Source: Psammoneis japonica (Eukaryota). From it: a stretch of 58,260 nucleotides of DNA. Every line of letters begins with the position of its first letter. The stretch's first letter is position 1. The DNA is taken from the NCBI GenBank assembly GCA_008632985.1, contig QPGO01000314.1:1-58260 (forward strand), in the 5' to 3' direction. The notes beneath the pieces were generated by a model that was not told the DNA's origin, made no database searches, and saw only the letters and a program-made list of their open reading frames with translations. Below are positions 2,672 to 37,719 of the stretch, in pieces. Both the position numbers and the translations under genes were made by a program.

Positions 2672-2947
2672 TGACAGAAATTGAAGGCAAATGGCAAGAA
2701 TTCAAACAACAACTCCTTGCTGCTGTCTAAATGGCAGATGAGTCTCCGCTCAGAGACCGTTGCAGGAGCCGAAAGACGTGCAAGTCGGTGCAATCGGGCT
2801 GCTGTCATCATTCTTGTGAGCCTTGTGGCTCGAAAGCAAACCACATCGCGCGTGAACGCGCGGAACTAAAGCACACAAAACTGTGCGCGGTAAACTAAAC
2901 AGCGCGCGATGCTTCACGCGCATCCAAATCCTGTTCAAATCCTGTCA
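2672..2947 (-). repeat. 3' LTR of Copia element
   Basis: Direct repeat of 9504-9779 with TG...CA termini; preceded on the minus strand by the purine tract at 2948-2953. Confidence 0.97.
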
Positions 2948-8564: not shown

Positions 8565-9503
8565 GGTAGACAAAAGTGGTGTCAGGACAATCAATTCTGG
8601 TTGGGAAGCAAAGGCAGACTCGAAACTTGGGTGAGAATGGACTTGACTTGAAATGGACTTGACTTGAAATCTTGAACTGTCTTAAAATCAGAAGTCGCCG
8701 GGCTTTGTCACCCCGTTCGTTGTCAAGTGCTAAACTTCCTGTCCGGTCCGTAGAGTTGTGCCGGCACGTCCGAACCCGCAGCCAGTGGCGCTTTGGGTTG
8801 CTTACGAGCGGAGTAGCGGGTTGTAAACCCCTGCAGGCAAGCTGACTGGAGGTGGACAAGACCCCCGAACCGTTCTCATTTTATGTCGGTTGGATTTCCC
8901 GATCAGGCTGGCCAGTTGACGCAGGCGCCAGGTGCTGTGGACGAACGAACAAACGCGGGAAAGCACCCTCGCCCCAACGCAGGCTGCAATCACGGCTGCT
9001 TGCTCTCACAGTCGTCCTCGTGGACCTGGTGGAACTGTGGAGCACCAGCAGTCCGGGGCAGATCAGGCACAATGGACTCGGTGTGCTTGCAGAGTGGCAG
9101 CAAAACCGCAGTCCGAAGAGTGGGCACAGGTTCTTGGCCGTGAAGACATGTGTGCACATGTGTGTCTTCAGCGAGGGAGATCCTTGAACATGCAGGGTTC
9201 TTGACCGTTGACCGATGAATGGGCACACCAAGGGATGAGGATCAAGGACAGACTTGGATGTGACCGTTGAATGCATGTCTTCAACGATCAAAGGCAGTGT
9301 GATCAATCCAGATGTCCAGCGGCAAGGAGACTTGACGGTGACGTTAACTTCCTGCCGATGCCCTGGTGTTGAATGCGCGCAGACTTGCCGATGCATGCAG
9401 GACACACACGGAGGTCCACGCAGAATTGAAGTGGCATCGTTGGCAAATCAACGACGACGATGGCGGTTGCTCAATGGGTTGACAATGAGCAAGACTGTCA
9501 ATC

Positions 9504-9779
9504 TGACAGAAATTGAAGGCAAATGGCAAGAATTCAAACAACAACTCCTTGCTGCTGTCTAAATGGCAGATGAGTCTCCGCTCAGAGACCGTTGCAGGAG
9601 CCGAAAGACGTGCAAGTCGGCACAATCGGGCTGCTGTTGTTGTTCTTGTGAGCCTTGTGGCTCGAAAGCAAACTGCATCGCGCGTGAACGCGCGGAACTA
9701 AAGCACACAAAACTGTGCGCGGTAAACTGAACAGCGTGCGATGCTTCGCGCGCATCCAAATCCTGTTCAAATCCTGTCA
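9504..9779 (-). repeat. 5' LTR of Copia element
   Basis: Direct repeat of 2672-2947, followed by TSD AAGAG. The internal flank on the minus strand reads GATTGACAGTC..., not a canonical TGG-type PBS. Confidence 0.97.
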
Positions 9780-12582: not shown

Positions 12583-14454
12583 ATGAATCATCGTAGAAAG
12601 AAATTGAAAAGATTGGAGAAACGTCTTGGTCGCCGTGGCAAGGAACGCCACGATGAAGGAGAAGGAGGCTTGTTGGAAGAACAGGCAACAGCAAGTTACG
12701 GTCTCGGCTCTATTATCAACGATATTCATGTTGACGAAGAGACTATGGAAGAGGAACAAAAGGTTGAAGAAACTGATGAAAGTAGTCCAGCATCTACCTT
12801 GACGGGTGCTCATGCAATGAGTCAACAAGGGGAGGTCCGTCGTGGTAGTGCACAAGCAGGTGGCGACGATGTTAGCCATGCCATTGTGTGTGACGTGGAG
12901 ACGGATCCCATGCCTCCTCCACAGCCAGTGCAGGGCAATGAAGCACTTCTTGTAGAAGCCCATTTAGTTGAACGGGCTGATAATGCAGAAGATGTGCGAG
13001 AACAAATGGCTACACTCGAGCAAGAAAACATGCGACTTCGAAATAAAGTTCCGCTAGTACAAGCCGAGGTCGCTCAAGAAAATACGAGAAGCAAGGGCCC
13101 TCGTCGCAAATGCTTGATTGTTATGGGTGTTACAGCACTTCTGATTACTGTGGCGGTTGTTGCTGGAGTTTCTGTCACTGGAGGCGGTGGCACGTTTCCG
13201 CCGATCCCCCCGCAGTCTCCAACATTGTCGCCCACTGTTCCACCCATGCAGTCTCCCACTAGACCCCCTATTACTGTCATTCCTGCTGATTGGATTCCCG
13301 CTGGTCAAATCTTGCATGGCAAAGCGGTGTGTGATTTTTTTGGCAGTTCTGTATCCTTGTCTCGTGATGGTCGTGTCATGGCTGTTGGCGCAACGCCGCA
13401 ATGTTCCAATCGCGGCTATGTTGGTGTCAATCGATACAATCCTGCCACCCATGAATGGATGCAAATTGGCCAAGAATTGATCGGACAAGCCGGCCTCGAC
13501 AATTTTGGAGAGTCTGTTTCGTTAAATGGCGACGGCACCATTCTTGCGGTTGGAGCTCCATTGAATGACAGTGGCGGAACGACAGCCGGTCAAGTGCGAG
13601 CGTATGAATACAACTCTGTATCGGATCATTGGGTCCAACTCGGTAGCGATATCCTTGGACAAGACTCCGGTGATGAATTTGGCATTTCCGTGTCGCTGTC
13701 GGACGCGGGAGACATTCTTGCCGTGGGAGCACACAGGGATGATACGGAAAAAGGTGTAAAGTCTGGTTCGGTTCGATTGTTTCAATACGACCGCGGCACC
13801 TCATCCTGGAGCCAACTCGGACAAACGCTGATTGGCCAAGCCGCTTATGATCATTTTGGCTTTTCCGTCTCCTTAAATGCGCTGGGAACCATTGTTGGAG
13901 TTGGAACAATTGTATGGGCTTCGAGTGACGCTGGCCAAGTGTCGGTGTATGAATACAATTCTACATTGGCAAGATGGGATCTGTTGGGGGATCCAATCAA
14001 ACGCCAAGATGTTGATGATTGGTTGGGAGACTCCGTTTCTCTTGACGACAGCGGTGTGATCGTGGCCGCAGGTGTGCCTGGAAGCAACCCGAGGGTTTTG
14101 GTTTATTCGTACGACCGCTCGACTTTGACATGGAATCAACGTGGCCAAACTCTCTTTTCACAACACCCTGATGATCTTGTTGGTTTCTCGGTGTCGTTGA
14201 GTGGAAATGGAAATGTCTTGGGGGTCGGAAGTGGAATGCGGGGTCAAGTTCGAATCTTTCAGCATGACAGCAATGCAGATGAATGGAAGCAAGTTGGCGA
14301 TCCTTTAAATGGCGAGGCTGAGCATGATGAAGATTTTGGACATTCCGTGTCCTTGTCGGCCGACGGAAGCGTCGTTGGAGTTGGCGCGCCCATGACTGAT
14401 GTCAATGGCGACAGGTCCGGATCCGTGCATGCATTCACGGCAAATGACAATTAG
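12583..14454 (+). CDS. Single-pass membrane protein with FG-GAP-like beta-propeller repeats (paralog 1)
   Basis: Intact ORF; ATG at 12583 matches the start of paralog 2. Acidic N-terminus, short coiled coil, one TM helix (LIVMGVTALLITVAVVAGVSV), Pro-rich linker, seven FGxSVSLSxDGxxLAVGA-type repeats. Confidence 0.88.
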   Translation: MNHRRKKLKRLEKRLGRRGKERHDEGEGGLLEEQATASYGLGSIINDIHVDEETMEEEQKVEETDESSPASTLTGAHAMSQQGEVRRGSAQAGGDDVSHAIVCDVETDPMPPPQPVQGNEALLVEAHLVERADNAEDVREQMATLEQENMRLRNKVPLVQAEVAQENTRSKGPRRKCLIVMGVTALLITVAVVAGVSVTGGGGTFPPIPPQSPTLSPTVPPMQSPTRPPITVIPADWIPAGQILHGKAVCDFFGSSVSLSRDGRVMAVGATPQCSNRGYVGVNRYNPATHEWMQIGQELIGQAGLDNFGESVSLNGDGTILAVGAPLNDSGGTTAGQVRAYEYNSVSDHWVQLGSDILGQDSGDEFGISVSLSDAGDILAVGAHRDDTEKGVKSGSVRLFQYDRGTSSWSQLGQTLIGQAAYDHFGFSVSLNALGTIVGVGTIVWASSDAGQVSVYEYNSTLARWDLLGDPIKRQDVDDWLGDSVSLDDSGVIVAAGVPGSNPRVLVYSYDRSTLTWNQRGQTLFSQHPDDLVGFSVSLSGNGNVLGVGSGMRGQVRIFQHDSNADEWKQVGDPLNGEAEHDEDFGHSVSLSADGSVVGVGAPMTDVNGDRSGSVHAFTANDN

Positions 14455-15263
14455 AAACAATGCATTTTGCATTTCATCCTTTTGCATGCATCAATCACTC
14501 TGTATTTTTTGTAGTTCATTTAGTTGCAGACTGTGCATCGCGTGCATTGTCAATTGTGTCAGAGCATTTTTCTCGCTTGTCGCTTGTCCAACCTGACGGA
14601 GTCTGTCTGTCTGTGCACTTTTTGAGACCTTCAATTCCAACCACGAACCATCGCAACTCTGTCGCTGAAACATCCAACACAACAAAACACAGCAACAGCA
14701 AATGAAAATGATTCCGGTGGAAAGAGTGTTGGTTGTGTGTGTTGAACCAGCAAGTCAGTGCCGCCAAAAGGGAATCCTGTGAGGCTTCCTGTGCTGCTCG
14801 TCGCACTTGCCTTGGTTTCTTGCAGTGGCTGTGGGTTGCCTGGAAGTTGTTGATGCAAACTTCAAACTTGCAATGTGACAGGTGCCCAGTGTGGCCAAAT
14901 GCAAAAATTGTGTGAACCAAATGATTCACTTCAAAGAGTGAGATGAACTGAAAGGTGAGAGAGATCGACAACGACAAGATGCTGATTGCAAGGAGTCGCG
15001 CCAATTTGATCGTGATGAGTCACCAAATCTGCCACATCAGGATTCACAGCATCTTTTCTTCAACTCATCTGGATTTCTTGTGTTTCCTGTGATCTGAGTG
15101 TTTGAACACACTCCTGCTGCTTGTGTTGATGTTCTGCTGACCAGACAGGTCCGGCTTGTCTTGAGGAGGGGAGATGGTGCTCCCTCTGTCTCACATCATT
15201 GCTGACATCTTTCAAATCGGCAATTCGCAAGCTGGAGCACTGTCCATTGTCAGAGCCATCAAT

Positions 15264-16420
15264 TGTCACAGAGACTCCAATGTGTCACAGGAGTGACCTC
15301 ACAAACTGACACCCCCACACACTGGGAGCATCAAAAGCCTGGCAAAACAGGTTTGAAGATGTTCCAGTGCAAACAGGCAGTGGTGTGAGAGCAATGAAAA
15401 CAGACAGCACAGAGAAAAGAACCATCAAAACACAATGCAGCAAACCTCTGAAACTTCAAAACACTTCCACAATGATGGATCAAAGAGCAAAGCATTGAGA
15501 TGCAAGGCAGGTGTCCGGGGTGGTGGCACAATGTCAAACCAGGAGGCCTGCCAGGATGGCAACAGGAGCGGCAATCAGGGGGGCAACCAGAACTGGCCCA
15601 ACTCAACTGGCAATTGGGAGGCCGGTTGGGACAACTCCAATCCATTAAAACATCTTTGCAGAGGATCTCATCTGGCTCACACAAATCTCACATTGGAGCA
15701 GCACCCCCCTGCAATGGGTGTGGCGTGTGACATTGGCAAAGAGCATGAGCAAGATGCAACAACAGAATCCTGGATCAAGGACTCACTTGCTCTGTCAAAC
15801 TCTTGCAAACCAAGCATGAAAACAAGATGACATTTGACCACAGCACCTCAATGCAAGTGCCACTGACACATGGGGCAATTGTCCGTGGTGTTCACACGTG
15901 TTGAGTCTCATGTGCATAGAAACAGTGTCACACACCACGCGATCTTTGGAAGATGAGGATGAAAAAGGTGCCAGTTGTTGCTGCAATGCATTTGATGCCA
16001 TTGCAGCAACCAAGCACACCAGCTCACATTAGAAACACTCAAGTGTGGCATTGGAAAACACGTGACAGTGGTGGCATTGCAAGACATCTGTCACTGCACA
16101 TGGCAAAGTGATCTGAAAGATGACTTGCCAGCACTGTGTCATCTGCAGGTGGAAACAGCACCACGTCCTGCACAGTCTTTGGTTCATGAAACAAAAACAA
16201 ATGTGCAAGAAGTGTGCAACAATTTTGAGGCCATTGCAATCAACAGAGCACCCAAGTTCACATTGAAAATGCTCAGGGGTGGCATTGAAATGCTTTTGCA
16301 AAAGAGGCTTGGTTGCGTGGGAAGGTTTCAGAGGTGCCATGTGTCAGCAGAGGTCAACGTGGGCTCACAACCTGGATGGTGGAGACTCCAATGCATCACC
16401 GGAGTGACCTCTTGCACAGA
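15264..16420 (-). mobile_element. Probable Copia-type LTR element remnant (LTR end plus PBS)
   Basis: GAGACTCCAAT...GGAGTGACCTC occurs at 15271, at 16382 and split at 44670/50362. On the minus strand at 16361-16374 it is followed by (CA)GGTTGTGAGCCC, resembling the Copia GGTTATG(G/A)GCCC PBS with TA->TG. 16185-16410 is homologous to 44077-44688. Confidence 0.5.
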
Positions 16421-17282
16421 CAAATTGTGTCGCCAAACATGTGTGATGCACCATGCACACATCCCACAGAACAGGCAAAGCAAGGTCTCTCTTTCTTGAC
16501 TTCTTCTTGCTGTCCTGATCTCATCAACCAGGTCCACAATCCAGCCATTGACTCTCTCAGGATTCAAATCAAACAACTCCACGCCATTGTGGAGCCACTT
16601 GTTCAACTGGTCTGCATGGTTGATGGTGTCATGGTGGAAGAATGATGCCAACTTCCTTGCATCACAAGTGATGCCATCTGTGTCCCTCATGAGCCCACAA
16701 TGACTCCCTGCAGTGTCCGGCAGACCGGGGCTTTCAATGAGCTTCACAAGGGGACAACACACCCCATCCTTGTCCATGCCACAGGCAGGAAAACAGATGT
16801 TCAACAACCTGGGTGAGATGTCAACATCACTCTTGTTGAGGGTCAATTGCAAATCATTGCCCATTAATCCAGTGGTGTGCTTTGCCATCATCAAGTTGTT
16901 TTTGAGACAACACAGCTCACCTTGCCTCCAGGCTTGGTGCCTCCCACAACATGACAACATTCCTTGGTCCTGTGTGCTCTGTCAGAACAACATTTGAACT
17001 CAGATGCTCTCCTTGGATCATCATGAATGGAGAAAATTGGTGCAGTGGTGGACACACACTTGAGTGCCTTGGAACTCCACAGTGGCAATTGCTTGAGCAC
17101 TCCATCAACTGGTGCCTGTTCTTCCATGGGTCTTGCCACAAACCCAAGGTTCTTGATCTGATTGGTGACAGAGAAATCAAGGTGCCAAATGATGAGTGCT
17201 CTAGACCACTTGCTGGCACACTCCTGATTGGTTTCCATCAGAGCAGTGCTTTTGTTGTGCTGACAGGGGTTGTTCTTGTTGG

Positions 17283-19990
17283 TTGGATGCCCCTGAACAT
17301 TTAACAGCCAACGACAGCCTTGCAGAGATCATCAGCTGTGTGAACAATGAGAAAGCCTTTGCAAACAAAGGCAGCAGCAAGAAGCAAGACAAGCAAAGGG
17401 AAAGCAATGCTCCTTCACCCCAATCTTCAAGACATTGTCATGGGAGTGGCAGCCAAGTGGATCCAGAGTCCAGGTGTCCGGCACACACCAATCATGACCA
17501 CAAGCGGAAGGGCTGTCAAGGTGGAGGCCAAAGCAATTGTCAAGGCAGAGGTTTGCAAGACCAAGGAGGTTGTGGCAACTTCCGAGGTCAAGGACGTGGT
17601 GTTTGTGGCAACCAAGGCAATTGTGGCAGCCAAGGTTGCGGCAACTGTCAAGGTCCCCAGAATTCTCAAGGTGGAGGATCCTGTTGTCAAAATCAAAATG
17701 GCGCACAAGCCAACCGTGACACCCAAGGCTGTAAAAATCTGGCTGGAGCAGCTCCTCCTGGTGACTGGCAAATGGAGTTGCACCATTTTGATTGAGAAGG
17801 GCCTCATGAGTTGTGAGGTGGAAATGGGTGCAACCAAGGTGGTTGTTTCCCTCCAGCCAGCAAGCATTGCATGTGTTGTTAGATTCAGGAGGCACTGACA
17901 CCCTTGTGCATTCTCATGTTTCACCCAAGGGAGCCAATCCAACTGTGAATGATGAGGGGTGGCTGAGTTTTCAGACAGCAGCTGGGCATTGTGAATCATC
18001 CCAATGTGCCATCATGAAGAATCTGGTGCCACCCGCATTTGACAAGTCCAAACAAGTTGATGGCATTGCTGCTCAAGCTTTTGACTCTCCGTGCAAACAT
18101 GATGTGAGACATTGAGCCAAGAAGGCTGTCTTTCCAAGGCCAGCACAACACTTGATTTTTGGTTTGGAGTCATGAAGTGGTTGGATGATTTGATCCCAAT
18201 GAAGCAACCCAATCATTGGAATCAAGTTCATGGCTGGTTGGATGTGCTGGACAACCACAAAGAGGATGAAGATGATGAGGACCTCCAGGGTCAAGCTTTC
18301 ATCATGCCAGATGTCAAGTGTGAGAGAAGGTGTCAACTGTGAAAGTGACACAATTGCAAACTCATTTGACCCAGGACCAACGTGACAAGCTTCACACCAT
18401 GCTTGAAAAGCACAAAACCCTCTTTGATGGGACGGTTGGCAAACATCTGCATGAAACCAATTTTTGGAAGTTGATCCTGGTGCCATTCCCTTTCACTCTA
18501 AAGCCCACAAAGCACCAAAGAGAGATGAGGCTGTTTTTAAGAAGGAACTGCACAACATCTTTGCAACGTTGGCACACTGGAATCAGCAGGACCAACAGAG
18601 TGGGTGGCCGGAACCTTCCCAACACCCAAAAAGGATGGACAAGTGGGATGTGTGTCCAACTTCCAAGAATTGAACAAGGTGCTCAAGTGGAAGGTGTCCT
18701 CCACACAATTTACACCAACAATTGGGGTGCAAGTTTTTAACCAAACTGGACCTCACCATGTTCTGCTGTCACATCGAGCTTGACAAAGAATCCAAGGATT
18801 TGCATGCTGTTGTTGCTCTGCTTGGAAAGTTCCAACATTGTCAACCAGCCATGGGTCTGAAAACTTCTCCCAACATTGCTCAAACTGTCATTGAGAAAGT
18901 GTCAAACAAACTTGATGTCAAAGCTTGTGTTGATGACATTGCTCAATTTGATGACTTGTTTGACACTCACATGCAGCACCGACTTGACAAGTTGCAGTCC
19001 AGACTGGAAGAGAATGACCTCAAGGTCAATCCACTCAAGTGTGAGTGGTGCGTCCAAGAGACGGATGTTCTGGGTCATTGGCTCACACCTGCAGGAGCTT
19101 GACCATGGAAGAAAAAGGTCAAAGCAGTTCTGCAGATGCAACCTCCTCAGAATGTGATGCAGCTGCAATCTTTCATTGGTGCAGCATCCTGTTGTCACAA
19201 CATGTGGCCTCATTGCTCTCATGCACTTGCTCCACTTACAAAGTCAACCAGCAAGAGCAAGTTGGAATGGACCCCAGAGTGTCAGAAAGCCTTTGAAGAC
19301 ATGAAAACATTGATGTTGGACAACACCCTTTGGGTCCACCCAAACCACAACAACTCCTCCAACTGTCAGATGGGTGCAGCGATCATGCAAGAAGGGAAGC
19401 CGGCAGCACATTGGTCTCAGAAGCTCAGTGCAGTGCAGCAAAATCACTCCACTGTTGAGAAAGAGCTCCTTGCTGTGGCAATGTGTTGCAAAGAATTCCG
19501 CACCATGTTGCTTGGGGCTGATTGTGCTGTTTTCACTGACCACAAAAACCTCACCTTTTGTGTGCTCAACTCTCAACAAATGCTCAGGTTGAGACTCTTT
19601 TTGGAGGACTTTGCTCTGACCTTCAAGCATGTTGACAGCAAGGATGACTCAATGGCAGATTGTTGTTCCCAATTGCCTTGCATTGAACCTCCAATGGAAG
19701 GAAATTGTGCTCCCAATCAGGGCAAATTGATGGATTTCAAGGCAATTGACACTGCCACACCACCTCATGAAGAGAAACTTGACAACCCAGATCACGTGTC
19801 TTGTTTTTCCTTTTGTTGTGAAGAACCATCTCATTTCCACTCCTCCTTTGTTGATGATCCTGATCTGTGTGAATCATTTTTGAACTGTCCCTCACTTGAC
19901 AAAATGCAAAATCCCACAACCATGCAGTCAATTTAAGAGCACCAATTTGTCGACATGGAATTGAGTGACATGCAACACAACAAAACACAA
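17283..19990 (+). mobile_element. Ty3/Gypsy retrotransposon relic (gag end, protease, RT, RNase H; integrase not seen)
   Basis: Protease LLDSG (~17880); RT KFLTKLDL...AMGLKTSPNIAQ...CVDDI...LKVNPLKCEW...LGHWLTP; RNase H QMGAAIMQEGKP...EKELLA...FTDHKNL...MADCCSQLP. Many stops and frameshifts. Confidence 0.9.
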
Positions 19991-20049
19991 AACCCAAATT
20001 CATTTTTTAAGGTGCTGCCACACTTCTGCTCTGCAACTCTGGCAAACAA

Positions 20050-23000
20050 GCTAACCCACACCCCCAGTGCACTTAACTGTGGCAGGGGAATGCAGCAATC
20101 AGCCAAGATCAGCCATCACCATCAGGGGATGCCACGCCAAAGCAACTTGCAACAGTGCAAGTGCCAAGCAAGGCCGGTCATTTTGCCTTGTGAATGCTTG
20201 ATTTAAACACAGGTCCAACAATTGCCAACCAATTGCAAAGATGGTGGGTGGAATGGGAAAGGTGTTCATCAACGGAGTCAAAAAGAGCTGCTCAATCTTT
20301 GGCCAAACGGTCATTTGAACAAGAGTGAGTGGCCTTGACCTCTGCCTCTGTGTCATGACATTGTGCCAATTTGCTGGTTTCTGAATCATGTGCGTGAGTT
20401 GATTCATTGTGTTGATCCCACAATGCCTGCTGTTGAGACCATGTGAAGTTGCCAATGGTTGCTGCTCAGTCAACTCTAGAGATGTCACAGTCCAAACTTT
20501 CAACCTTTTTCAAATGCATGAGGTGCACCCTGTTCCAGCAGGCAGAGAATCAGCCATTGAAAATGAGCCTCCAACCAATCTGTTCCTGTGCATGAAATTT
20601 TTCCAAAATGCTGTGGTGAAGCTTGTCAGCACAGACTGTGTCTTCAAGAAACCAAGCCTCTGATGCAGCAAGCAGAAAGTTGCACATGGGAGGAGAAGTG
20701 TGAATGTCATCACATTTCTTCTGTAAACCTTGAAGGAAGGCACAATGCCATGCTTCATTGTGGGGGCACCACAGGATGTGGTCTCCATCCTCCATTGGAT
20801 GCTGGCAGTGAATGCAACAATCAGGTCTGATGGGATTGCACCAGCGGGCAACAAATCCTGCACCAGTTTGATGGCACTCATTTTTTGAGTGATGTTTTGT
20901 GACACAAGTTTAGAGTGCACCGGCCCATCAATGAGTTGGAATGCTTCATCTGTCCAAGTGCACTTCTCTTTCATGTGTGCAAGAAGAACTGGAAATGAGG
21001 CTTTGCATTGAAGTGCCGGTTTGAACTTGGAGTGCACGGAAGCATTTTGAACAGTGAGGTTGACGGAGCAGTGTGGCACATGAGGAGCAACCGACACAGA
21101 CCCAGGACATTCCCCTTGATGTTGACCTGCAATGCGGTCAGCTCAAACACTCAACTGTGCTGGAAGATGCAAGGATTTGCAGGGAACATTGTCATCTTGA
21201 TGGCACTTGATCCAGTGAATCACAACCTGTGTGCATGATTGCTTGGAGTGGAGAGAGTCAACTGAGTGGAAAATTTCATTCAATGTGTCCCAATCTGCTG
21301 ACACAGTGTCAGCAGCATGAGATTGATGGCAGCAGTCATGTTGCACATTGGAGGGATTGTCTTCTGTGGAGATTGGGATGGAATGGAAGTTGCTCTTGCA
21401 TTGCAAACAACAGCGGAGTTGTTGCAGCATGGGTCCATTCCCTGTGACAATTTTGTCTGACAAAACTCCATCACTCTGAGAACAAACAGAAGAAAGGAGA
21501 GCATCCCATGTGCCTCTGCACAGCAAGATGATGGGCCACAGTCAAATGCTGGACCAGCACAATCGACTGGGATGTTTCTGTCAATCACAAGCATCCATCT
21601 GAAGGTGGCATTGAAGCCAAGAACAGACCTGTCACTTGCTGCTGATGTGTGGTGAAGCCCAAGAATCTCTGCCAGTTTGAAACTGAACATGTTGAGGGAG
21701 ACCTTCACAAACAAAGATGATTCACACAGAGGCAGGGACCATGGCCAGTCTTGAAAATCAGAGGGGACAGAAACCACAGGAGACAGATCAAACAGGGAAC
21801 CGATGCCTCAGATGCGCCATCAACTGTCTTCAATGGTGCCAACCATGACTGGTGATGCCAAGGGGGACAAATCAAGAACAGTCTCAAGAGGATCAATGAC
21901 AGGAGCAATGCCACGGGTTGCTGGGAAGATTTGAAAGCCTGCCAGAGATCTCATGTGTAAACATCCTTTGACTGGTTCATCGTGCACAGGAAATTTCATC
22001 CACATCTCTGCAGACAGGATGGCCAAGAGCCCAATGGGCTGCATGACTCTAGATCCTTTCCTCTGCTGACAACACTGCAAAACCGCTGCCACTGTTTCCA
22101 GGCATGTGAGGACAGAAGAGCTTGTTCCACCAGGTTCAACATGGATGAACTGCTTGAGATGGAGGGCTCACCCAAGAACATTTGACGATCCAAAAACTGG
22201 CCATCTGGCAAGGCCACACCAGAAACGATGAGGATGTTGAGGCAAAGGCAGCAGCAATTCACCCAGCGCATTTGTCAATGGGAGAACATTCCCAAGTCTA
22301 GAACCACGTCCATGATGTGTTGATTGTTGTTTCACTGGAGGGGAAGTGCACCTGAGTCATCCAAATCAAAACATGCATCCACTCTGGACAAAAACAATCA
22401 GAGAGACATGAACCATTTAGACTCAGAGTGAAGCAACTTGGGATGAACATCTTTCAGGAAGCCAACCCCCGTGCTGAGATGGAACTGGATCCATGAAACC
22501 CCAACATGAGGCAACATTGCGGGCTGGCCAATCCCACACCAGTTGGACAGAAGCTGCGCCACTTGACCAATGCCTTGTTCCACATCTGAGGACCAAAATC
22601 CACCACCACTGAGAATGCAACAAGGGCCAAAAAGGACGTCCTAATTGGCACTGCAATCATGCCTGCATTTGGCAAATGTTGTGCACACAGCTTTTTGTTG
22701 AATCTCGAGAAGCTCCTTTGGAGCAAAATGGGAATTTGGGAGAGCACACATCACACATGCTAAATGGCAAGCAAAATGGGGAGCACAAGCTTTGCTGCTG
22801 TCGAGGGAGCAAGATCAGAGAAAGAGAGCAATGTCATCACTCTTTTTCTCAAGGGCTTCACAGAGAGTTTTTTGTGAACCTGCTGGAGACTTGTGGTGCC
22901 CTGGGGTCATGCGGGACATGTGGGCAGATGACTGAACACTGGACCAGGAATGTGGTTGATTGGTGGAGGAAATGTCAATGATGATGGCATCATTGCATGC

Positions 23001-26000
23001 GCTGAGGTGTGGTTCTCCATCTTCCATGAAGTGCCATTCAATGACATTGTCTGAACATTTGGGTGGCTCCACCACAACTGGTTTTTTCCTCCTGCATTTT
23101 GAAAGCCAGGTCTGACACTGAAGGTTGAGGAGAGGTGCAGTGAAATTGTTGGCTTGCTTTGAGGTGTCGTCCACGCAACCCCGGTTGCACATCATCATGG
23201 AAACAGAATGGTTTGGGGACTCAAAGAAAATGCCATGGGCGTGTTGGTCAAATGTCTCTCAAAGAGGCTGTTGCAGATGTGATTCCAACAAAAAGGGAGA
23301 ATTGCCACTGCCCTGACCATTGCCACAAATGGGAGATTCAGCGGAGTGTGAGCATGACGATTGGGACAAACCGACTCCTGTTTTCAACCAGCAGTGTGCC
23401 TGTTGCAGAGTGCAATTTGCTGTCTGAGCAACTTCCTTTAGCATGCCATTGCTGCAACTCTCAAGAGCAGCTGGCACCAGAATGTTGCAATCACAGCAGG
23501 AGGTGCAGCAGTCATCACTGTGAACAGCCATTTTCTGGGAAACCCAACTGATTTCAAGCACAAGTTCTTCTGGGCACACTGGGGCATTCACATTCAAAAA
23601 GGAGTGAGTGCCACATGTCCCAGGGTTGCAGAGCTTCCATTGCTCCATGTTTTGTGCCAATGACTGCCACATGACACTTGAAATCAATTGAAAGTCGGCT
23701 TTGTAGATGTGGATGACATGCAAACGGCAAATCTTGGCATTTTCAGCCTTGTCAAAAATCACAACATTGACGATGTCTTTTCATCTGTTGCATGAGTGCC
23801 CCCAGTGTAGAGTGTAACTCAAAAGGTTCAACCTCATTTGAGTGAGTGTGCATTGAGTGGTGCCAAGGCACTCATGGTCTTCTGCAGGGTTGCCATCAGT
23901 GGTGGTGGCATTGGAGTGGGAGTGAGCAGTGCACATGGCTTTCCAATGGCCAACACAAATGCTTGAGGAGAACTGCAACAGATCTCTGTCCAATCTCTCA
24001 GCCAGTTCATGATTTGGGGCATCAAGTTGTAAAAGTGCATTTGTTCTTGACAGGAGATCTTGGCTTAGAAGCATGGGGGGCAATGGCATCAAGGCAGGTG
24101 GTCACCTGTGGTTCAGAGGATGAGACCATGTTGCGATGACTGGCCTTTGGCAGGTTGATGGTGGGATTGCCAAAAAGTGCCACAGCGTCAAAGTCAACAC
24201 AGTGAGCATGATGATCTGAAGCAATTTGACAGCCAAAAGCCTCACAGCCTCCAAATTGAGCTGCAGCCAAAGCACCTGGAGTTGCAAGCACACAATCTAA
24301 TCTCTTGGAACCTGGTGTGTGCACAGAAAATTCTGTGTCTCCCACAAGCTGGAGAGTGGGACATCTGATGAGTTGAATCTCTGTGCAAGGTTGGCAAGAT
24401 TCTCTGTGTTGACCATGAAGTCAGTGCTCAAGTTGCCAAAGATGACAACTTCTCTGTTCTGATCTGCTGGGAACTCCTGGAGCAAGCAACACAAGTCTAA
24501 ACAGAAAGCTTTGTGCGGGTTGACCGCACTGTTTCCTTGTTGACATAGAAGCACAGCCTGCTGGGTGCTTGCAGTGGTCCTTCTGGGGGCATTTTGTGGC
24601 TGTTGGAGCACACGTGGCAGCACAAAACAAACATTGTGACCTGCAGTCCTTGCTTCCCATCAAAACCTTGGACAGACCAGTGACCCAAGGGGTCCAATTC
24701 CTGGCTGCAATGCTGTGCCGCAACGGAATTCCCCAACAGAAGTGCAGCACTGCCTGGCTTGCAAGGAGTGGCAAAGGCAGTGGAGCTGCAAGAGAAGGTG
24801 CTGCGGCTGTGATTCATGATGTTCTGAACAGCAGAACGGCGTGGTGACAGCATTTCACATTGGGTGGTGTCCAAACAGACCTCCGACATGCCAACCACAT
24901 CAGCTTGACTCTTGTTGGCAACCTGGCAGCTGCATTCAAGAACATCTCCACCTCTCTTGTCAAATTTGCACCCATTTGCATTGAAAGCACATGATCTTGT
25001 GCAGTGTGGAAGCTTCGGATTGAGGGCATCACCAGTTGGTTTGTTCTGTTAGAGGCAAGAGAAGTCAATGCAGTGGTCAGTGGGAAGGCTGCACCTGTTG
25101 CCATCTGGGAGTGACTGCCAAGCTTGTGAGGAAGGATCTTGACAACCTTCTCTGTTCATGGTTGGGCCGTGCTCCTCCCAGAAGAAGACTGAGGCTCACA
25201 TGACACAGGCAGAGATTGCAGCCCTGGCAGTCTTGAAGTTGACACCGTTGACAAGAATGTTGTGACAGCCATTGGCAAAACTAGAGGGAAAAATCTCTTG
25301 AACACTTTCAAAGCCTTGAACTGTTGATCAAAATAAAACATCATGTCCAGAGAGGTGCAAAGGAGTGGCACCACACAAGTGTTGTCATTGCGGTGGGCCT
25401 GGGATTTAACAGCATTGTAGAAGGAAAGGGGAGAAATGTGATGGGTCTTGGCCACAACAACATGGGTCGGAAGCTTGTTGGATGCACAAAGCAGGACTTT
25501 GCCGGCAGTGTGGCAGTCATTTTGTTGCACTTCAATTGCGAAGTTTTGGTGCAAAGAGGAGCGGCAATGTTCTTGTTGTCTGTGCAAACAGAAGTGGGAG
25601 CCAACCAGAACTTTGTTTTCTTGACCTTGAATTTGCCCAAATCACTGAGGAACATTTTGTTGGCTTCATCAATGGGAGTGTGTTTTGTCACTGCAGCAAT
25701 GCAATGAGCCAGGTGCACTGTGTTGAGCTTTCTTCATGGAGTTGCCAATGGCAGGAACATGTGCAGGACAACTCCCTGTTGCCATCATTGGCAACAATGC
25801 CGGGTGGAACTCATCAACGTTGTCCAAGGAAACCAGAGCTGCATCTGGAACATCCTTGGCCGCCATCCCCAAGGATGGAGAAGCGTTTTTGAGGTCTCTG
25901 CCAACAAGAGGAGGGATGACATCATCCTCCAAGAATGAGTCCACAGCACTGGCAGAAGGGCCATTAGAAACCTGATTCACATTGGTGGCTGTGGACAAAT

Positions 26001-27400
26001 CCACAATTTTTGCTGGCAGTGCAAGGTCAAAAAACACCAAATCAAAACCACAGGTTGGTTGCAAACATCAACAAACAAACAATCTAGCTTGTCAAATGAT
26101 GAAAACTTGGAAGACACACCAGTGGGGCCTTTGCCTTCAGCAAAGGAAAGAGCATCAGATTTTTTGACAAAATCAATCAACTCTTTGTGCTTTGCCTCCA
26201 GAAGGCTGTGCAAGTTAGCCACATGAGGCTTTTTGCATTTGGCGTGGGTGCGCAACTGAACCCACAAATCAAGAAGAAGGAACACACATGCTCCTCAGTC
26301 TTTGACTCAGGCAACTTCTTTGCCAAGACAGGAATGGCAGGAGGCTGACAAGGGTTGCTGGAGATGACGAGCATGCCTGGCTTCTTGCAGACTTCAATTT
26401 CATCTGCTGTTGGGTCAGGAGGCAACTCAGGCTTCTCAGCAGGAGATGCAGTTGGAGCAGGAAAATCCGGTGCATGCTCAGATGCCATTGAGGTGGCATC
26501 AGACTTCTCTGTGAGAGCTGGCAAAGTGCGCACTTGCTTCCAAAGGTTCCTGGAGGGCCATTGCCAATGTTGGTCTCCAAGTCTTGAATGGACTGGTTTG
26601 TCAGATGCTTGGAGATGTCAAGATCCCTGATGCTGACATCTTGCAAAGTGCAAACAGCTTCACAACATTGGGGGGTGCCGCCAAGCTGAGCATGTTTGTG
26701 GCAATTTCACAGGTGTTGCCATTGCTTGCAATCTGCTGCTTCCCAATCTCACCAAAAGCAACAGAGTGGCAGTGGGCAAGCTGCTGCCAGATGGTGTTGT
26801 CAAAGTTCTTGACAAGAGCGCTGAATGCAAACCTGAAGTTGCTCAAGGCTGCAATGACGTCTGACGAGTCCTGGACATGACCATGAGCATGCAAGACAGA
26901 TTTCTTGATTGACTCTGTGGTCATGGTTTTGAAGTCAGCACTGCTGCACTCCTGCCCTTCCTCAATGATCTTGGTTTGTTCCAAAGTGTCCATGAGCAGA
27001 GTGAGAAAGTCAAGCATGTTGATCTTGGATAAAAAGGTCATCACAGATGCATTTGGAGGTGCGTCCGCAAACTTGAAGCAGCAAATGCCATCAGCAAATG
27101 CCTTGTTGATGCAAGCAGGGCAAAGAGTGACTGCTTGATTGAAGACATTCATGGTCTTGATGCCATTGAGGGTGGTGGCAGCAATCTCATCAATGAGGCA
27201 AGCCTTCTTGGTCTCACTCAATTCTTGGAGGGCCTCAACAAAGACTTGCTTGAGCTGTCCCAGTGTGACAGCATCAGATCCCACTGCCTTGTGGCAAAAC
27301 ATGAAAGAAAAACAAGCCTGGATGTCAGCAGCTCTCTTCTTGAGGTCCTTGTCCATCTTGGATTGGGTGCCTTGACTTGGACAGTGATGGGAGCTTGTGC
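20050..27400 (-). mobile_element. Non-LTR retrotransposon (LINE; APE-RT-RNase H-Zn knuckle, Ambal-like) relic with putative ORF1 upstream
   Basis: APE motifs (SEVCLDT, CKPGS, DPLGHWS, GSKRLDC, SDHH) at 24100-24900. RT motifs (KICRLHVIHIYKAD, PICGNGQGSGNSP, GCVDDT) at 23100-23760. RNase H (SSCCAEAHG, HWIKCHQDD) at 21180-21650. EDGDHILWC at ~20780. Ends and ORF1 (25150-27400) are approximate. Confidence 0.85.
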
Positions 27401-28620
27401 GGCAGTGCCAGGAGCTTGAGCAGCATTTGTGGGATGGAGCAACGTGAAGCAGGTCAAAATTTTTGACAAACGGAAAGAAATGGAGGGAAAATGAGGCTCT
27501 GTCCTAAGAGATTTGAAATCTCTGAAAGTTGTGGTTGTGATTTTTGCACAAAAAGCATGGGGTGTGCAGATGATCTGCTGGTTGCATCAGGAATCAAACA
27601 TTTGTGGGAACTCCCGGATCCAAGAGATGTGTCTGGAGATGTGCACAAATCAGCATCAGAGTTCATTGTGGATTTTTGGTGGTGGTTTTTGAGAGAATGT
27701 CATCTCTCAAACAATTGAAGATGGAACATCATGTTTGGAACATGACACAGCATGAAGTTTTTTCATGTGAAACTGTTGCAATGGTCAGAGTGTGCTCACA
27801 TGCATGGATGCACAGAGGGCAGACATGAGATCTGAAAACTGCAATGGCAGAGAAAAAAGAGAAAAAGGTCCGGCGCACAGGGATTTGTGGAGCAACCTGA
27901 CAGTTGCAGAACAATGAACCCAGACAGTGTCAGGCCATTTTCATGATGTGCTCACGCTCTGATGTTGAGATCAGACAAAACGAGGTGGATTGCATGCAAT
28001 CTGGATCAACTGGTTTGCGGAGATCATCCGAGTTCAGCATGATCAGAGAGGGCGTTTGCAGTGGCAAGAGCATCCCAGCCTGCCAAAACAAAATGCCAAA
28101 CTGCACTGTTTGCATTCTGACAGAACGAATCAGAAAAATGGCAAGAGCGGCGCAGGCAATCGCCTTGGCTTGCAGAGCACATGTCTGGATCCAAGAACGA
28201 TGGCTGATTCATCATGGTTTTGCAGGCTGATCAGGACAATCAAGCCAATCCATGGGTCAACTGGCGCCATGTGCAGCTTGTGGGCGATTGTGCAAGGCAT
28301 GCCAGCATGCAGAAACAACGCTTTCAGCATTGTCAGGTCGACGCAACTGATCCCATCACCGGTGATCCACCAAACACAATGAGGGGAACTGGGGCGGCCT
28401 CTCATCATTGTCCATCTGTCTGTCTGCCTTTTGCTGCACGCTGCTCTCGCGCAGTGAAAACTCCAAGAGCGCGGCTGCCCACAAGGTGTTTTCTCCTTGT
28501 GGTGAGCCTGCTGTCTTGGCTCCAATGTCCCTGCTCATGCACAGAAACGCGCAGCAAGGTCCTGAGCATTTTCGATGGCACAGAACCTTGCCACGGGTTT
28601 CTGTGCCCATTTGCGACAAA

Positions 28621-29260
28621 GCTGCGTAGATTTGCAATGAAACAAATCTGAGCACTGTGTGTCTGCGGCAGGATCTGCGTGAAAACAAATCGAAACGTGT
28701 CCACCGAGCCGGCAGTCATGTGCCGGCCGTCGTGAAAAGCATTTCATGTCTGAGAAAGAGTTCGTCAGGGCCGGCGAACAACACACCTCTACGATGCGAT
28801 TGGTGCAAAATCTACGTAAATGCACAGAAACCAGCATGTGGCTTCTGTGCAAATTAGAGCTCGTGAAAAACAAGCAGGGACATTCGACCTTCGGGCACGT
28901 GAATCGCGCAATTGTTTTCGCAATTCGTAGACTAGTGCCACATCCCTGCTTGTGCACACGAACCACCTGGTGGTTCGTGTGCACCCTACGCAAAATGCTG
29001 CGTAGATTTGTACCGAATTAAATCTGAGTGCCTACATCTGCAGTAGGATCTACGTGAAAACGCACTCGAAACAGTGTCCACCGAGCCGGCAGTCATGTGC
29101 CGGACGTCGTGAAAAGTATTTTATGTCTGAGAAAGAGTTCGTCAGGGCCGGCGAACAACACCCCTCTACGATGCGACTGGTATAAAATGTACGTAAATGC
29201 ACAGGAACCAGCATGTGGTTCGTGTGCAAATTAGAGCTCGTGAAAAATAAGCAGGGATAT
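28621..29260. repeat. Direct duplication, period ~376 bp (aligned segments 28621-28883 and 28997-29260), upstream of FG-GAP paralog 2
   Basis: Both copies start GCTGCGTAGATTTG and share CCACCGAGCCGGCAGTCATGTGCCGG...GAGAAAGAGTTCGTCAGGGCCGGCGAACAACAC...AAATTAGAGCTCGTGAAAAA. Confidence 0.92.
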
Positions 29261-29380
29261 CTCTACCGGCATCTCATTGCATTGTGGTGAAATCGGGTTC
29301 GCGTATCGCATCTTTATCTCGTTTCTCGTTCGTCGTTCGTGCCGAAAAAAAAAACGTAAGATGACTTTTTATCAATCACC

Positions 29381-31231
29381 ATGATGAATCGTCGCAACAA
29401 GGCCTTCAAAGCACCAGAGAATAGTTTTGGCCGTGGCAGCAAGGGAGGCCACGAAGAAACAGAAGAAGTGCAAGAGGACTTGGAACAAATCCAAGAAGAG
29501 CAAGAACAAGAACAAGCACGATCGAATGTTGCTTTTGCCGCTTACAGCACTTCTCATGTGGTCGAGGAGAATCAAGAAGAAGCTGAAGAAACAACTCCGG
29601 CATCTGCCTTGGCCGGTGCTTTTGCAGTGAGTCAACAAGGGATGGTTCGTCGTGATCGTGGACGAGCAAGCCGCGATAACACTGGCATCAGCGTTTTGTC
29701 TGACTTTGGGACAGTACAATCTGAACCCATGATGCCGCCTCCACCGCCTGCACAAGACGATGACACACTTCTTGTAGAAGCCCATTTAGCTGAGCCGGAT
29801 GACAATGTAGAAGATGTGCGAGAACAAATGGCTACACTAGAACAAGAAAATATGCGTCTTCGAAATGAAGTTCCGCTGGCACAAGCTGAGCCTTCTCAAG
29901 AACGTGCGAGCAACAAGGTCCGTCGTCGCAAATGCTTTGTTGTTCTGGGAGTTGCAGCACTTCTGATCACTGTGGCGGTTGTAGTTGGAGTTGCTGTCAC
30001 TGGAGGTGGTGGCGCTTTTCCGCCGTCAACGCTTGCGCCTGCTAATTGGAATCCAGTTGGTCAAGTCATGCACAATGGAAAAGTTTCAAGTCATAATTTT
30101 GGGAGCTCCATCTCCTTGTCCCGTGATGGCAGTATCATGGCGATCGGAGCAGGTAGCCTTGTCTCTTCCGGCTATGTTATTGTGCAACAATACAGTCCAA
30201 GCACCCAACAATGGATGCAAATTGGCCAAGAATTGATTCTACAAGCCGGCGGTGACAATTTTGGCAATTCCGTTTCATTAAATGGTGATGGAACGATTCT
30301 TGCTGTTGGAGCTCCGTGGAATGACAGTGGCGGAACGACAGCCGGTCAAGTGCGAGTGTATGAATACAACTCTGTATCGGATCATTGGGTCCAACTCGGT
30401 AGCGATATCCTTGGACAAGACTCCGGTGATGAATTTGGTATTTCCGTGTCGCTCTCGGACGCGGGAGACATTCTTGCCGTGGGAGCGTCGGCTGATGAGA
30501 CGGTAAATGGTAAACGGTCTGGTTCGGTTCGATTGTTTCAATACGACCGTGACTCCTCATCCTGGAACCAACTCGGACAAACACTCATTGGACAAGCTAC
30601 TGCTGATTATTTCGGCATTTCCGTTTCCTTGAATGCGCAGGGAACCATTGTCTGTGTTGGAGCGTATTTTAATGATTCAGGTTCAAATGCTGCTGGTCAA
30701 GTGTCGTCATATGAATACAATTCTGCCTGGTCAAGATGGGACATGTTGGGCGGCCCAATCAATGGACAAGTCGTAAATGCCAAGTTTGGATATTCTGTTT
30801 CTCTTGACGACAGCGGTTTGATCGTGGCCGCGGGTGCACCTGAAAATGACGAGAGGGTTTTGGTTTATACGTATGACCGTTTGACTTTGACATGGAATCA
30901 ACGTGGCCAAACTCTTTTGACGCAACAGCCCCACAATGGTTTTGGATGGTCAGTGTCGTTGAGTGGCAATGGAAAAGTGTTGGCTGTCGGTAGTTTGTAT
31001 CACAGCGTCAATGGATCGATCTATGGCCAAGTCCAAATCTTTCAATACAACAGCAACACCGCCATATGGAATCAGTTTGGTGATCCTTTAAATGGTGAGG
31101 CAGAAAATGATTATTTTGGATATTCCGTGTCCTTGTCGGCAGATGGAAGCGTCGTTGGAGTTGGTGCTTATGGAGCTGATGACGATGGCGAATCTTCTGG
31201 AACCGTGTATGTATTTACATCGAACAATTAG
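29381..31231 (+). CDS. Single-pass membrane protein with FG-GAP-like beta-propeller repeats (paralog 2)
   Basis: Intact 616-aa ORF collinear with paralog 1: AGAFAV and LVEAHL motifs, TM helix, seven FGxSVSL repeats, normal Tyr content. Confidence 0.9.
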   Translation: MMNRRNKAFKAPENSFGRGSKGGHEETEEVQEDLEQIQEEQEQEQARSNVAFAAYSTSHVVEENQEEAEETTPASALAGAFAVSQQGMVRRDRGRASRDNTGISVLSDFGTVQSEPMMPPPPPAQDDDTLLVEAHLAEPDDNVEDVREQMATLEQENMRLRNEVPLAQAEPSQERASNKVRRRKCFVVLGVAALLITVAVVVGVAVTGGGGAFPPSTLAPANWNPVGQVMHNGKVSSHNFGSSISLSRDGSIMAIGAGSLVSSGYVIVQQYSPSTQQWMQIGQELILQAGGDNFGNSVSLNGDGTILAVGAPWNDSGGTTAGQVRVYEYNSVSDHWVQLGSDILGQDSGDEFGISVSLSDAGDILAVGASADETVNGKRSGSVRLFQYDRDSSSWNQLGQTLIGQATADYFGISVSLNAQGTIVCVGAYFNDSGSNAAGQVSSYEYNSAWSRWDMLGGPINGQVVNAKFGYSVSLDDSGLIVAAGAPENDERVLVYTYDRLTLTWNQRGQTLLTQQPHNGFGWSVSLSGNGKVLAVGSLYHSVNGSIYGQVQIFQYNSNTAIWNQFGDPLNGEAENDYFGYSVSLSADGSVVGVGAYGADDDGESSGTVYVFTSNN

Positions 31232-31727: not shown

Positions 31728-33533
31728 TCACCTCTCTTTTAAACGATTCTGCATCATACTCAATCCCAATTCATAAATCGTCGACGACAAGAGTCGTTCT
31801 TCCCGTTTTTGTGCCGCCTTTTCCGACGCACTCTTGCTTTCCAACACTTCGATCTTGTCTTGTTTTTCCTTCAACTTGGCCTTGCATTCTTGGAGTGCCA
31901 CGAGATACTTTTCTTGAAATTTCGCCAAGGTCTTTTTCGTGTAGGCTTCGAGTTTTTCCTTATCGGACGAGAGCTTGGCACGGGCCGATTCCTTTTCGGA
32001 TAATTCCAGTGTTAAGCGTTCGACTTGATCTTGAAGCTTCTTGACCGCCTCGTCGGAATTGGATGCAACTGCAGTACCACCACTTGCCCTTAATTCTTGC
32101 AATTCCTTTTGAAGGTTTTGATTTTCAATTTCAAGTCGCATTGTCTTTTCCTTACTTTGCGCATCATCCACAAGACTCAATCCACCCACCGCAGGCAAAG
32201 CATCATGATGATGATCGTGATGAGAATCCGATTGGAGTTTCAATTGCTCCAGTTCTTCTTGATACATTTTTTTCGCGGATTCCGCCGCCGTCCATTGACG
32301 TTTGGTATCGGCCAATTCGGCAGTCGCCTTGACACTTGCCTCCTTGGCTTGTTCGTTTTCCTTTTTTAATTTTTTGACCGAATCTTTTAATTCTTGTACT
32401 TGCTTTTGCAAGGCCGGCATCTTTTTGACTTGTGATTCCAATTCGACAATCTGTCGTAAATACGACGCCGATTGTTGTTCACTTTCCAACAATTTGGAAT
32501 GAATGTTATCGACGCCCTCCAATTTGTTACGATAGGCCGACACGGTCGTTTCGGCTTTTTGCAATTGCAACGCCTTGGCATTGGCAACATCCAAATCATC
32601 CGCGAGTTGCGCGTGGGATTCTTGTAGTGTACTCAATTCCGTTTGGAGTGATTCGAGTTGCGACGTTTTTTCCGACAACTCTTCTTCACTGGCAATCAAT
32701 TCGTCTTGACGCTTGACCAAACGATCCTGCAAATCTTGAACGAGACCTTGCAATTTTTGGAGCGAGGCTGCATCGTCGGCTTCTCGGATGCTCGCTTGCG
32801 ACTTGAATTGAGCAAATTCGCGACGCAAATCCGTCAGGGATTGTTCGACTACTGAAGAAGAACTAGTAGTGTTTTCAAACAAGTGCTCGGGTTCATCATC
32901 TTGCTCTTCCTTGTCTTGATTAAACACCAGTTCCGCGTCTTCTTCTTCTTCATCCTCATTGCCTTGATAATCACTCGTTTGTTCCAACGAGGCTTGAATA
33001 ATTTGCTTCATTTGCGATTGAGACGTGGCCGACAGCTTCATAATTTTGGCAATATACTGTTGCTTTTGTTGACACGTCACGGCGGCAGCCGCTACAATAT
33101 GCACCAATTTGGAAATCTCTTCCACACTCTCATTCCGAGCAATTTCGGATACCTTGAAGGAAGCAAAAAAATCACACGTCTTTTTCAATTCAACATGAAA
33201 ATAATGTTCCATATTTCGCAATAATTTACGTAAATTGCTACTCTTGAGAGCCCAATTGTCACCCAAATGACGAGCAATTGTGGTGGGATCAAAATAATCG
33301 GGGGCGCTGTAAGAGAGAATACATAACGTGAGTTTGAGTACATGCAGTAGTAAGCAACATACCGTACAACATACGATTCTAAGCATATAGACTTACATTT
33401 CTGCCATGCATTCAAAGAGTGCTACACCATCACTCAATTCCTCGAGACTCGTGGGTGGTGTACCCGAAAGAGTTTCAAAGGTGGATAGAAATTCCACCAT
33501 GGCGGCGGCATTGTTATCTGAAGATGACGACAT
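31728..33533 (-). CDS. HOOK-family coiled-coil protein (microtubule/dynein adaptor-like); 2 exons: 33397-33533 and 31728-33306
   Basis: Hook-type N-terminal domain (LEELSDGVALFECMAEI/APDYF...NWALKSSNLRKL), long coiled coil, C-terminal REERLLSSTIYELG. The GTAAGT...ACAG intron 33307-33396 restores the frame (AT|C = Ile). Confidence 0.88.
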
Positions 33534-33874: not shown

Positions 33875-34616
33875 ATGTCTTCCGATACGTGTTCGTCTGA
33901 ATTTTGCAATGCCGGTTGGTCCGAAGTCTTGACTCACATGAGTCCCTATGGTTATGCCAATTTTGGCATTGCCTTTGGACTTGGATTGAGTGTTGTGGGT
34001 GCCGCATGGGGTATTTGGTTGACGGGCTCCAGTTTGGTGGGTGCGGCCGTGAAAGCACCGCGTATTCGGAGTAAAAATCTAATTAGGTATGTAGAATGAA
34101 TACTGGAAATGTAGAGTGAACACGAAAATGAAAGAATTTGGGAGAAAAACAAACAACAACACAACAACATGGCATCGCTTCTCTATTTTATCACTAGTCA
34201 CTCTCTTCTCTCTCTCTCTTCTCACACTCACTCACTCTCTCTCTCTCTACAGTGTCATTTTCTGTGAAGCCACCGCGATTTACGGAGTCATTATGGCTAT
34301 TATTCTCGCCAACAAGGTCAAGGCTCCCGACGATGCCGTTTATTATCTAGATGAAAATTGGGATTGGGCCGGATACTACTATGCCGGTTATGGCATGTTT
34401 TCCGCTGGACTTAGTGTCGGCTTGACCAATATTGCCTCGGGCGTGAGTGTCGGCATTGCCGGATCGTCGTGTGCTCTGGCGGATGCACAAGATGCCAGTT
34501 TGTTTGTCAAGATTTTAATTGTGGAAATTTTTGCGTCGGCGCTTGGTATTTTTGGAATTATTGTCGGCATTATTCAATCGAATGCGTGCACCTTTCCCAT
34601 TGCGCCGTTGGCGTAA
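33875..34616 (+). CDS. VMA16: V-type H+-ATPase V0 subunit c'' (21 kDa proteolipid); exons 33875-34086 and 34253-34616, 191 aa
   Basis: [48 protein letters not shown]...[24 protein letters not shown]. The GT-AG intron 34087-34252 joins the exons in frame. Confidence 0.95.
34201..34250. repeat. Imperfect (CT)n microsatellite / polypyrimidine tract in V-ATPase intron
   Basis: CTCTCTTCTCTCTCTCTCTTCTCACACTCACTCACTCTCTCTCTCTCTAC directly before the 3' AG. Confidence 0.9.
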
Positions 34617-35500: not shown

Positions 35501-35680
35501 TAGGTATGGTGCTATGTTGCTCTCTTTTGATGTTCTACAAGCATGACAATGATGCGTCGGTCGTCTTGAGTAAGAAGGATCACTTTTTACTCAATCGAAG
35601 TTTTATTCTTCATGACTGCCAAAAACTGCCATTCTACAAACTGAAGGGGCAACATCATGAAACACATATATTACGCATCG

Positions 35681-37578: not shown

Positions 37579-37719
37579 GGCGATTGATTCAATCAACTTT
37601 GATGTTGCTTTCTGTTTTCTGTATAATAATGATGTGAGAACATGCGAAAGGAGAACTCGTTTCGTTTTCTCGCGACATCCCAGTCAAGTCATGTCTGATG
37701 ATGTCTGCGTAGAATTTTA

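Follow-up and report, generated by a model that had tools for sequence, protein, structure and literature searches.

In Psammoneis japonica, TA dinucleotides are lost from transposon-rich DNA, very probably through a mutator that acts in place on chromosomal DNA, in domains centred on silenced transposon blocks, with an activity that fades outwards. The change is directed and specific to TpA, takes place after insertion, depends on position and not on copy number, and leaves no long strand-coordinated tracts. The window, that is, the whole 58,260-nucleotide stretch analysed, is one complete contig (C315; C plus a number denotes a contig) of a 91-Mb genome in 597 contigs. Along it, gene stretches with a TA observed/expected ratio of about 0.4-0.8 alternate with blocks almost free of TA, in which the ratio is mostly below 0.15. 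At the right edge of one such block lie two copies of a MITE, followed by a host gene for an FG-GAP repeat protein (Table 1).

Table 1. Features at the edges of the TA-poor block (window coordinates)
Feature	Position	Strand	Remarks
Paralogous FG-GAP gene at the block's other edge	12,583..14,454	+	TA loss at block-facing end only
TA-poor block of decayed transposons	13,963..28,790	.	HMM edges
CG-poor core nested in TA-poor block	14,803..27,955	.	HMM
Reverse transcriptase and RNase H remnants within TA-poor block	18,674-19,933		
End of old repeated element	28,331..28,521	+	stops 3-4 bp left of D copy
5' target-site copy, left MITE	28,525..28,528	+	ATGT (from ATAT)
Left MITE copy, older subfamily D	28,529..28,879	+	14/19 TA and 3/25 CG lost, compared with its own subfamily
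3' target-site copy, left MITE	28,880..28,883	+	ACAT
Terminal remnant of second, unrelated MITE family	28,880..28,930	+	insertion target of D copy
5' target-site copy, right MITE	28,940..28,943	+	ACAT (hit)
Right MITE copy, young subfamily A	28,944..29,256	+	without ~40 bp of 5' palindromes
3' target-site copy, right MITE	29,257..29,260	+	ATAT (intact)
Single-copy DNA upstream of FG-GAP gene	29,261..29,375	+	TA intact
Host FG-GAP repeat gene	29,381..31,231	+	616 aa; right MITE ends 120 bp upstream

The block extends about 0.8 kb beyond its CG-poor core on each side as a margin poor in TA only. The old element that abuts the left MITE copy looks LTR-like, its ~190 bp recurring about 8 kb apart in relatives. 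The spacer between the two MITE copies is the last 50 bp of the second MITE family, which is about 322 bp long with inverted ends of about 45 bp and has at least 141 candidate places in the genome; at 28,880-28,883, the uninterrupted host element reads ATAT in six of seven relatives, the seventh carrying a small insertion. Elsewhere in the window, a copia-like element at 2,672-9,779 has 276-bp direct repeats that are 96% alike, with TA largely gone and CG intact. Three 371-bp tandem copies at 586-1,702 are 99% alike and almost without TA or CG, indicating that they were amplified later than they were eroded. Ordinary host genes at 31,728-33,386 and 34,128-34,616 encode a HOOK protein and a proteolipid of the ATP synthase subunit C family, respectively; among the matches listed, the HOOK homologs carrying an organism name are from diatoms, at about 50% identity. 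An exact look-up of four proteins in a protein collection returned none of them, and two DNA contig sets of one sample made repeats visible and added nothing further.

A preliminary description of this locus had read the two MITE copies as a duplication with a mutation gradient across it. Its seven motif differences are all present where it placed them, and over the aligned 264 bp the left copy holds 5 TA and 17 CG and the right copy 16 TA and 18 CG. The pair was not made at the locus, however: these are two separate insertions of a dispersed MITE, from subfamilies D and A, and the elements span 28,529-28,879 and 28,944-29,256, 5' ends included, which had been missed. Local tandem duplication was rejected on the separate target duplications and because the copies are not nearest relatives, being 87% identical to each other while the right copy is 99-100% and the left copy 89-92% identical to copies elsewhere. 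Seven to eight of the nine TA losses counted earlier stand. The step from GGTATAAA to GGTGCAAA is one loss and not two, since subfamilies B, D and E have GGTACAAA and the second TA of GGTATAAA is therefore specific to subfamilies A and C; the difference between TTTGTA and TTTGCA is present, but as a loss it is ambiguous in D, several copies having CG there.

A gradient does not follow from the pair alone. The left copy predates the right one, no slope is seen inside it, both of its ends being hit, and a gradient drawn from separate insertions of different age is invalid. The five TA that it keeps are at sites kept in most D copies, and erosion affects each of the 11 D copies scored, regardless of flank (11-18 of 16-20 TA lost). 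Moreover, the left copy shows the same strand of loss as the copy at C210:88006 at 10 of 10 internal sites (P ~0.0025 under independence; one of 36 distinct pairs), and the two also share both target-site states and other diagnostic letters. Many of its internal losses may therefore predate its arrival here, with the erosion partly inherited, or the left copy may have been the donor to C210:88006. The right copy is the informative one of the pair: it has lost the pair of TA closest to the block (28,941 and 28,951) and retained the remaining 17, so that loss in its interior is limited to the TA of the 5' inverted repeat.

Both copies belong to a family of about 350 bp with more than 50 genomic copies. 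BLAST of the two against the genome gave at least 44 and at least 47 matches, and a TA-free pattern of the element gave 46 matches, compared with none for a control pattern. A sampling bias from the BLAST match listing was rejected, 43 of the 46 places of this TA-free, CG-tolerant pattern being already in the set. We scored 54 copies in five subfamilies (A, B, C, D and E, named here); three extra pattern matches and 15 loci with a 5'-end match only were compared by BLAST and left unscored. The element folds strongly (z -7.1). Its ends carry a 10-bp perfect inverted repeat that continues as a partial one, and outside them lies a TA-centred 4-bp target duplication (ATAT, ATAA, TTAT, GTAT or ATAG, with TTAA on one side of two copies only). 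Ends beginning with CCC, as those of the MITE do, are a hallmark of piggyBac. The accessible text of a piggyBac report gives these elements a 4-bp target duplication and short inverted ends of 12-19 bp, and names ATAT, ATAA, TTAT and ATAG as rare target sites (PMC5381638). The MITE resembles them in its 4-bp duplication and short inverted ends, and differs in that its target is not TTAA and its perfect inverted repeat is 10 bp (PMC5381638). As the TTAA target and the 12-19-bp repeat are missing and no parent was found, we do not file it under piggyBac. In detail, the genome has 16 profile matches to PF13843, two of which adjoin MITE copies outside their ends; no transposase trace was present in 17 loci with a matching 5' end, and these matches and 5'-end loci yielded no autonomous parent with the same ends. 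One piggyBac-type transposase (L107:3500-5930, contig C70) retains a 692-aa open frame with TA intact, and just upstream of it a subfamily-E-like MITE is inserted between ATAA duplications. Two copies of the MITE lie within about 500 bp of each other at six loci (C315, C533, C71, C210, C122 and C143), arranged in tandem, head-to-head or tail-to-tail, pointing to local hopping or to a clustering at the edges of blocks. The orientation of the MITE relative to the direction of neighbouring genes showed no clear pattern, many flanks being without a long ORF.

The direction of change given in the preliminary description, from TA to CA or TG, was borne out. Its proposed check was whether CA/TG is ancestral in other genomic copies; these relatives keep TA, and the same TA step reads CA in some copies and TG in others. 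In addition, the two target-site copies of the left MITE, identical at insertion, now read ATGT and ACAT. TA is the ancestral state; our rule for calling it leans towards TA, and the target-site, empty-site and twin tests are independent of that rule. After 10 doubtful TA sites were removed and one was added by hand, 136 of 703 TA positions in subfamilies A-C, twins removed, differ from the subfamily state, compared with 26 of 838 CG and 81 of 9,630 other positions, which excludes chance; 38 of these 81 are A>G or T>C. Loss also varies with the base after the edited A, at 114/268 for C, 74/161 for T, 34/146 for A and 18/129 for G. We found no sign of processive strand-coordinated tracts, with no same-strand excess in five bins from 4 to 400 bp. 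The excess is confined to sites at most 3 bp apart (19 of 27, against 13.5 expected), indicating that hits are single events on either strand. Upstream of some lost TA, runs of T are also changed (C263:38796, where TTTTA became CCCCA, C41:347792 and C2:622883), which hints at short-range repeated editing beyond TA itself.

Across the family, TA loss follows the neighbourhood of a copy. A flank was called TA-poor when it held at most 6 TA in 300 bp. In a table of 35 A-C copies, which excludes five twins sharing flanks and three copies without a 5' end and includes four hand corrections of mis-gapped or split ends, 1 of 228 TA was lost in 12 copies with two TA-rich flanks, 64 of 358 in 19 copies with one TA-poor flank and 52 of 76 in four copies with two, although p-values from this and the distance analysis overstate certainty because sites within a copy are not independent. 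Other substitutions (non A>G/T>C, non-CpG) are alike in the three classes (10/3071, 21/4892 and 3/1082, respectively). Correspondingly, the more TA in the flanks, the less TA was lost (rho -0.65, p 2e-5, n=36), and background divergence, an age proxy that rests on few substitutions, showed no such correlation (rho 0.06).

The same dependence is visible within single copies, whose two ends offer mirror-identical contexts. Twelve of 40 copies are hit unevenly, and in 11 of them the more-hit end adjoins the TA-poorer flank, the twelfth having an unscorable target site. Outside subfamily D, ends are hit in 20 of 25 cases beside poor flanks and in 2 of 39 beside rich ones. The 5' ends of copies between TA-rich flanks are intact in 15 of 15. 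Measured from the poor flank in 18 copies, with eight resistant contexts left out, loss is 21/37 at 0-59 bp, about 10% beyond 180 bp, and 3/39 and 4/33 beyond 240 bp. Some observations run against this pattern: in 10 of these 11 copies it is the 5' end that is hit, C128 being the only mirror case; C59, C56 and C19 have a TA-poor 3' flank and no loss; and C16 (17/21) and C66:384838 (12/18), each with one rich flank, are hit over their whole length. The TA-poor flanks checked are other transposons, 4 of 4 themselves repeats, and all hit sequences looked at are repeats or paralogs, yet being repeated is not sufficient for TA loss. The preliminary description was mostly right in what it observed and wrong in the label of duplication; its claim that position decides, and not duplication alone, fails as argued from this pair and holds on the evidence of the whole family.

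Twin loci show that the mutation was active after the twins split. C114 and C345 differ at about 20 TA-derived sites within the MITE and towards the block, many of them CA in one twin and TG in the other; on the gene side, 1.5 kb with 72 TA in common is free of such differences. C142/C49 follow the same pattern but for one exception; C143/C195, TA-poor on both sides, differ on both sides, and C168/C78 are nearly identical and hence uninformative. Host genes beside the block tell of the same reach. In the FG-GAP gene at 12,583-14,454, none of 11 conserved TA up to 14,110 is changed to CA/TG, and four of the last six (14,263, 14,428, 14,432 and 14,436) are gone within the final 200 bp; in the gene at 29,381-31,231, none of the 13 TA sites common to both paralogs is changed. 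A third FG-GAP paralog (35,680-37,600, minus strand), broken by stops, has lost conserved TA at 37,184, 36,737, 36,550 and 36,525, on the side nearer the block at 38 kb, and 0 of 7 on the far side. The TA-poor zone is wider than the CG-poor zone, which nests inside it: of the CG-poor bases, 132,375 are poor in TA as well and 853 are not, and the TA edge lies outside the CG edge at 42 of 52 edges by a median of 310 bp, figures that are not a random genome sample because the loci were chosen around MITEs.

Several other accounts of these observations were weighed. Age and inheritance alone, by which older copies lose more anywhere, eroded donors pass their losses on and a gradient merely records insertion order, is true in part for this pair, as the uniformly eroded D copies and the strand and target-site states shared with C210:88006 illustrate. 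As a general account it is contradicted by one-ended loss within single young copies and by twin differences confined to the block side; it also fails on the loss at the end of a host gene, and the divergence proxy is equal across flank classes, making it very unlikely. A homology-triggered process like fungal RIP, in which any repeat is targeted, the mutation leaks outwards and pairing is more efficient for long repeats than for a 350-bp MITE, would fit the repeats found in all four TA-poor flanks checked and the leakage of at least 930 bp that the accessible text on RIP reports (PMC2973834), and a length threshold could spare isolated MITEs. Still, 227 of 228 TA survive in 12 members of a family that has 50 copies at 99% identity, the FG-GAP paralogs, 78-89% alike over 300-bp stretches, are spared except beside the block, and the main target of a comparable process in Bigelowiella natans is, in the accessible part of the preprint, single-copy (10.64898/2026.01.13.699255). 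We consider such a trigger improbable. The suggestion that the MITE's own 5' palindromes nucleate mutation that spreads outwards draws on the strong fold of the element and on two post hoc counts. Of 21 one-sided copies, 16 have the 5' end towards the poor flank (p 0.03), and among A-C copies so oriented 13 of 14 are hit, compared with one of five facing the other way (p 0.006). This suggestion is most improbable, given that all 15 5' ends between TA-rich flanks are intact and that the poor 5' flanks, which extend for kilobases, consist of other transposons that stop 3-210 bp short of the MITE. All three nested-insert copies (C37, C104 and C168) are split in their 5' part, and the 5' end or its palindromes may attract other insertions.

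A different chemistry acting at the same positions has to be taken more seriously, although we regard it as doubtful. Here TA would be lost through error-prone patch repair after 5-methylcytosine damage, or through mispairing of a modified thymine with G, and active genes would be protected; such protection would yield the same map as targeting of the blocks. A TA-poor zone around a CG-poor core is what patch repair would give, the accessible text of a diatom study reports CG methylation of transposons by DNMT5 (PMC9998398), and non-TA A>G/T>C changes number 22 in 11 heavily hit copies compared with 16 in 27 others. On the other hand, those 11 copies lost 120 of 198 TA against the 22 other A>G/T>C changes, TA is lost with CG intact, for example in the copia-like element at 2.7-9.8 kb, and strand coordination does not extend beyond 3 bp, while patch synthesis should give tracts. 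Polymerase eta has only a modest preference for TA over AA, which also counts against patch repair.

Returning to a mutator that acts in place, we propose that it would hit TpA sites of either strand singly, changing them to TpG or CpA. Its activity would fade over about 0.1-0.3 kb inside a young neighbour and, given time, would reach about 0.8 kb beyond the CG-poor core. From the flank and nesting patterns we infer that chromatin determines targeting and that a silent-chromatin mark is the guide: a silent-chromatin domain wider than the methylated core would recruit or admit a TpA-specific modifier. This modifier would most simply be an adenine deaminase, and among the chemistries considered, deamination of A in TpA (A to I, read as G) has a little less than an even chance of being the right one. 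The genome has nine profile matches to PF00383 and four to PF02137, as expected of ordinary housekeeping deaminases, and these are uninformative on a TpA mutator. At this locus, the second MITE would have come first and the D copy would then have inserted into its ATAT, the large element adjoining it on the left; the young A copy would have arrived last, its hits so far limited to the two TA closest to the block.

The closest parallel is the TpA-specific hypermutation of integrated NCLDV and virophage DNA in B. natans, where, in the accessible part of the preprint, de novo TpA changes occur about 1000-fold above background in viral inserts, varying among lines, and transposase and reverse-transcriptase domains are over-represented among TpA-poor coding sequences (Mettrop et al., bioRxiv 10.64898/2026.01.13.699255). 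Both processes change TpA to TpG/CpA on both strands, regionally, and spare the rest of the genome; the one in B. natans does not need a repeated target, and here repetition is insufficient (10.64898/2026.01.13.699255). Different from that rhizarian with its integrated viral DNA, the organism here is a diatom-like stramenopile and the targets studied are transposon blocks. Erosion is near complete in these blocks (TA observed/expected mostly <0.15), compared with a Rho of 0.45 in the B. natans viral region, and the accessible part of the preprint describes no distance gradient, spill into a host gene or nesting around a CG-poor core like those seen here. Like fungal RIP, the process makes directed transitions at one dinucleotide in transposons and leaks over several hundred bases; unlike RIP, which makes TpA from CpA and is triggered by homology, it removes TpA and spares isolated near-identical copies, for which a length threshold may account, as far as the accessible text on RIP allows comparison (PMC2973834). 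Decay of CpG in DNMT5-methylated diatom transposons, as given in the accessible text, has its likeness in the CG-poor core of the same blocks, from which TA loss differs in being faster (136/703 vs 26/838) and in reaching further than CG loss (PMC9998398). In the literature searched, which mostly left subscription papers outside its scope, no report of TpA hypermutation in a diatom was found, and the B. natans preprint alone describes a TpA to TpG/CpA spectrum.

A directed A:T to G:C mutator of chromosomal DNA thus has one report in that literature, a preprint on a rhizarian alga, and TpA mutation across transposon classes in a diatom-like genome would extend the process to a second supergroup, in a lineage with gene editing tools. 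The MITE family provides a ready ruler for it, having mirror-image ends, a duplication that dates hits after insertion and 50 positions in varied settings; by this ruler, neighbourhood and not repetition decides, and the reach is hundreds of bases. The second, ~322-bp MITE family would give a larger ruler for the same positional test. More tentatively, Stramenopiles and Rhizaria might share a chromatin-guided defence that edits DNA adenine. In the present genome, its guiding mark would be wider than CG methylation; it would introduce Tyr to His changes at the ends of host genes nearby and erase the TA-centred target sites and inverted-end TA of cut-and-paste elements, so that old blocks would be closed to these insertions and new MITEs would accumulate at the edges of blocks, to be edited from the block-facing end inwards. 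In genomes with TpA mutation, transposon ages, stop codons and Tyr codons near such blocks are distorted.
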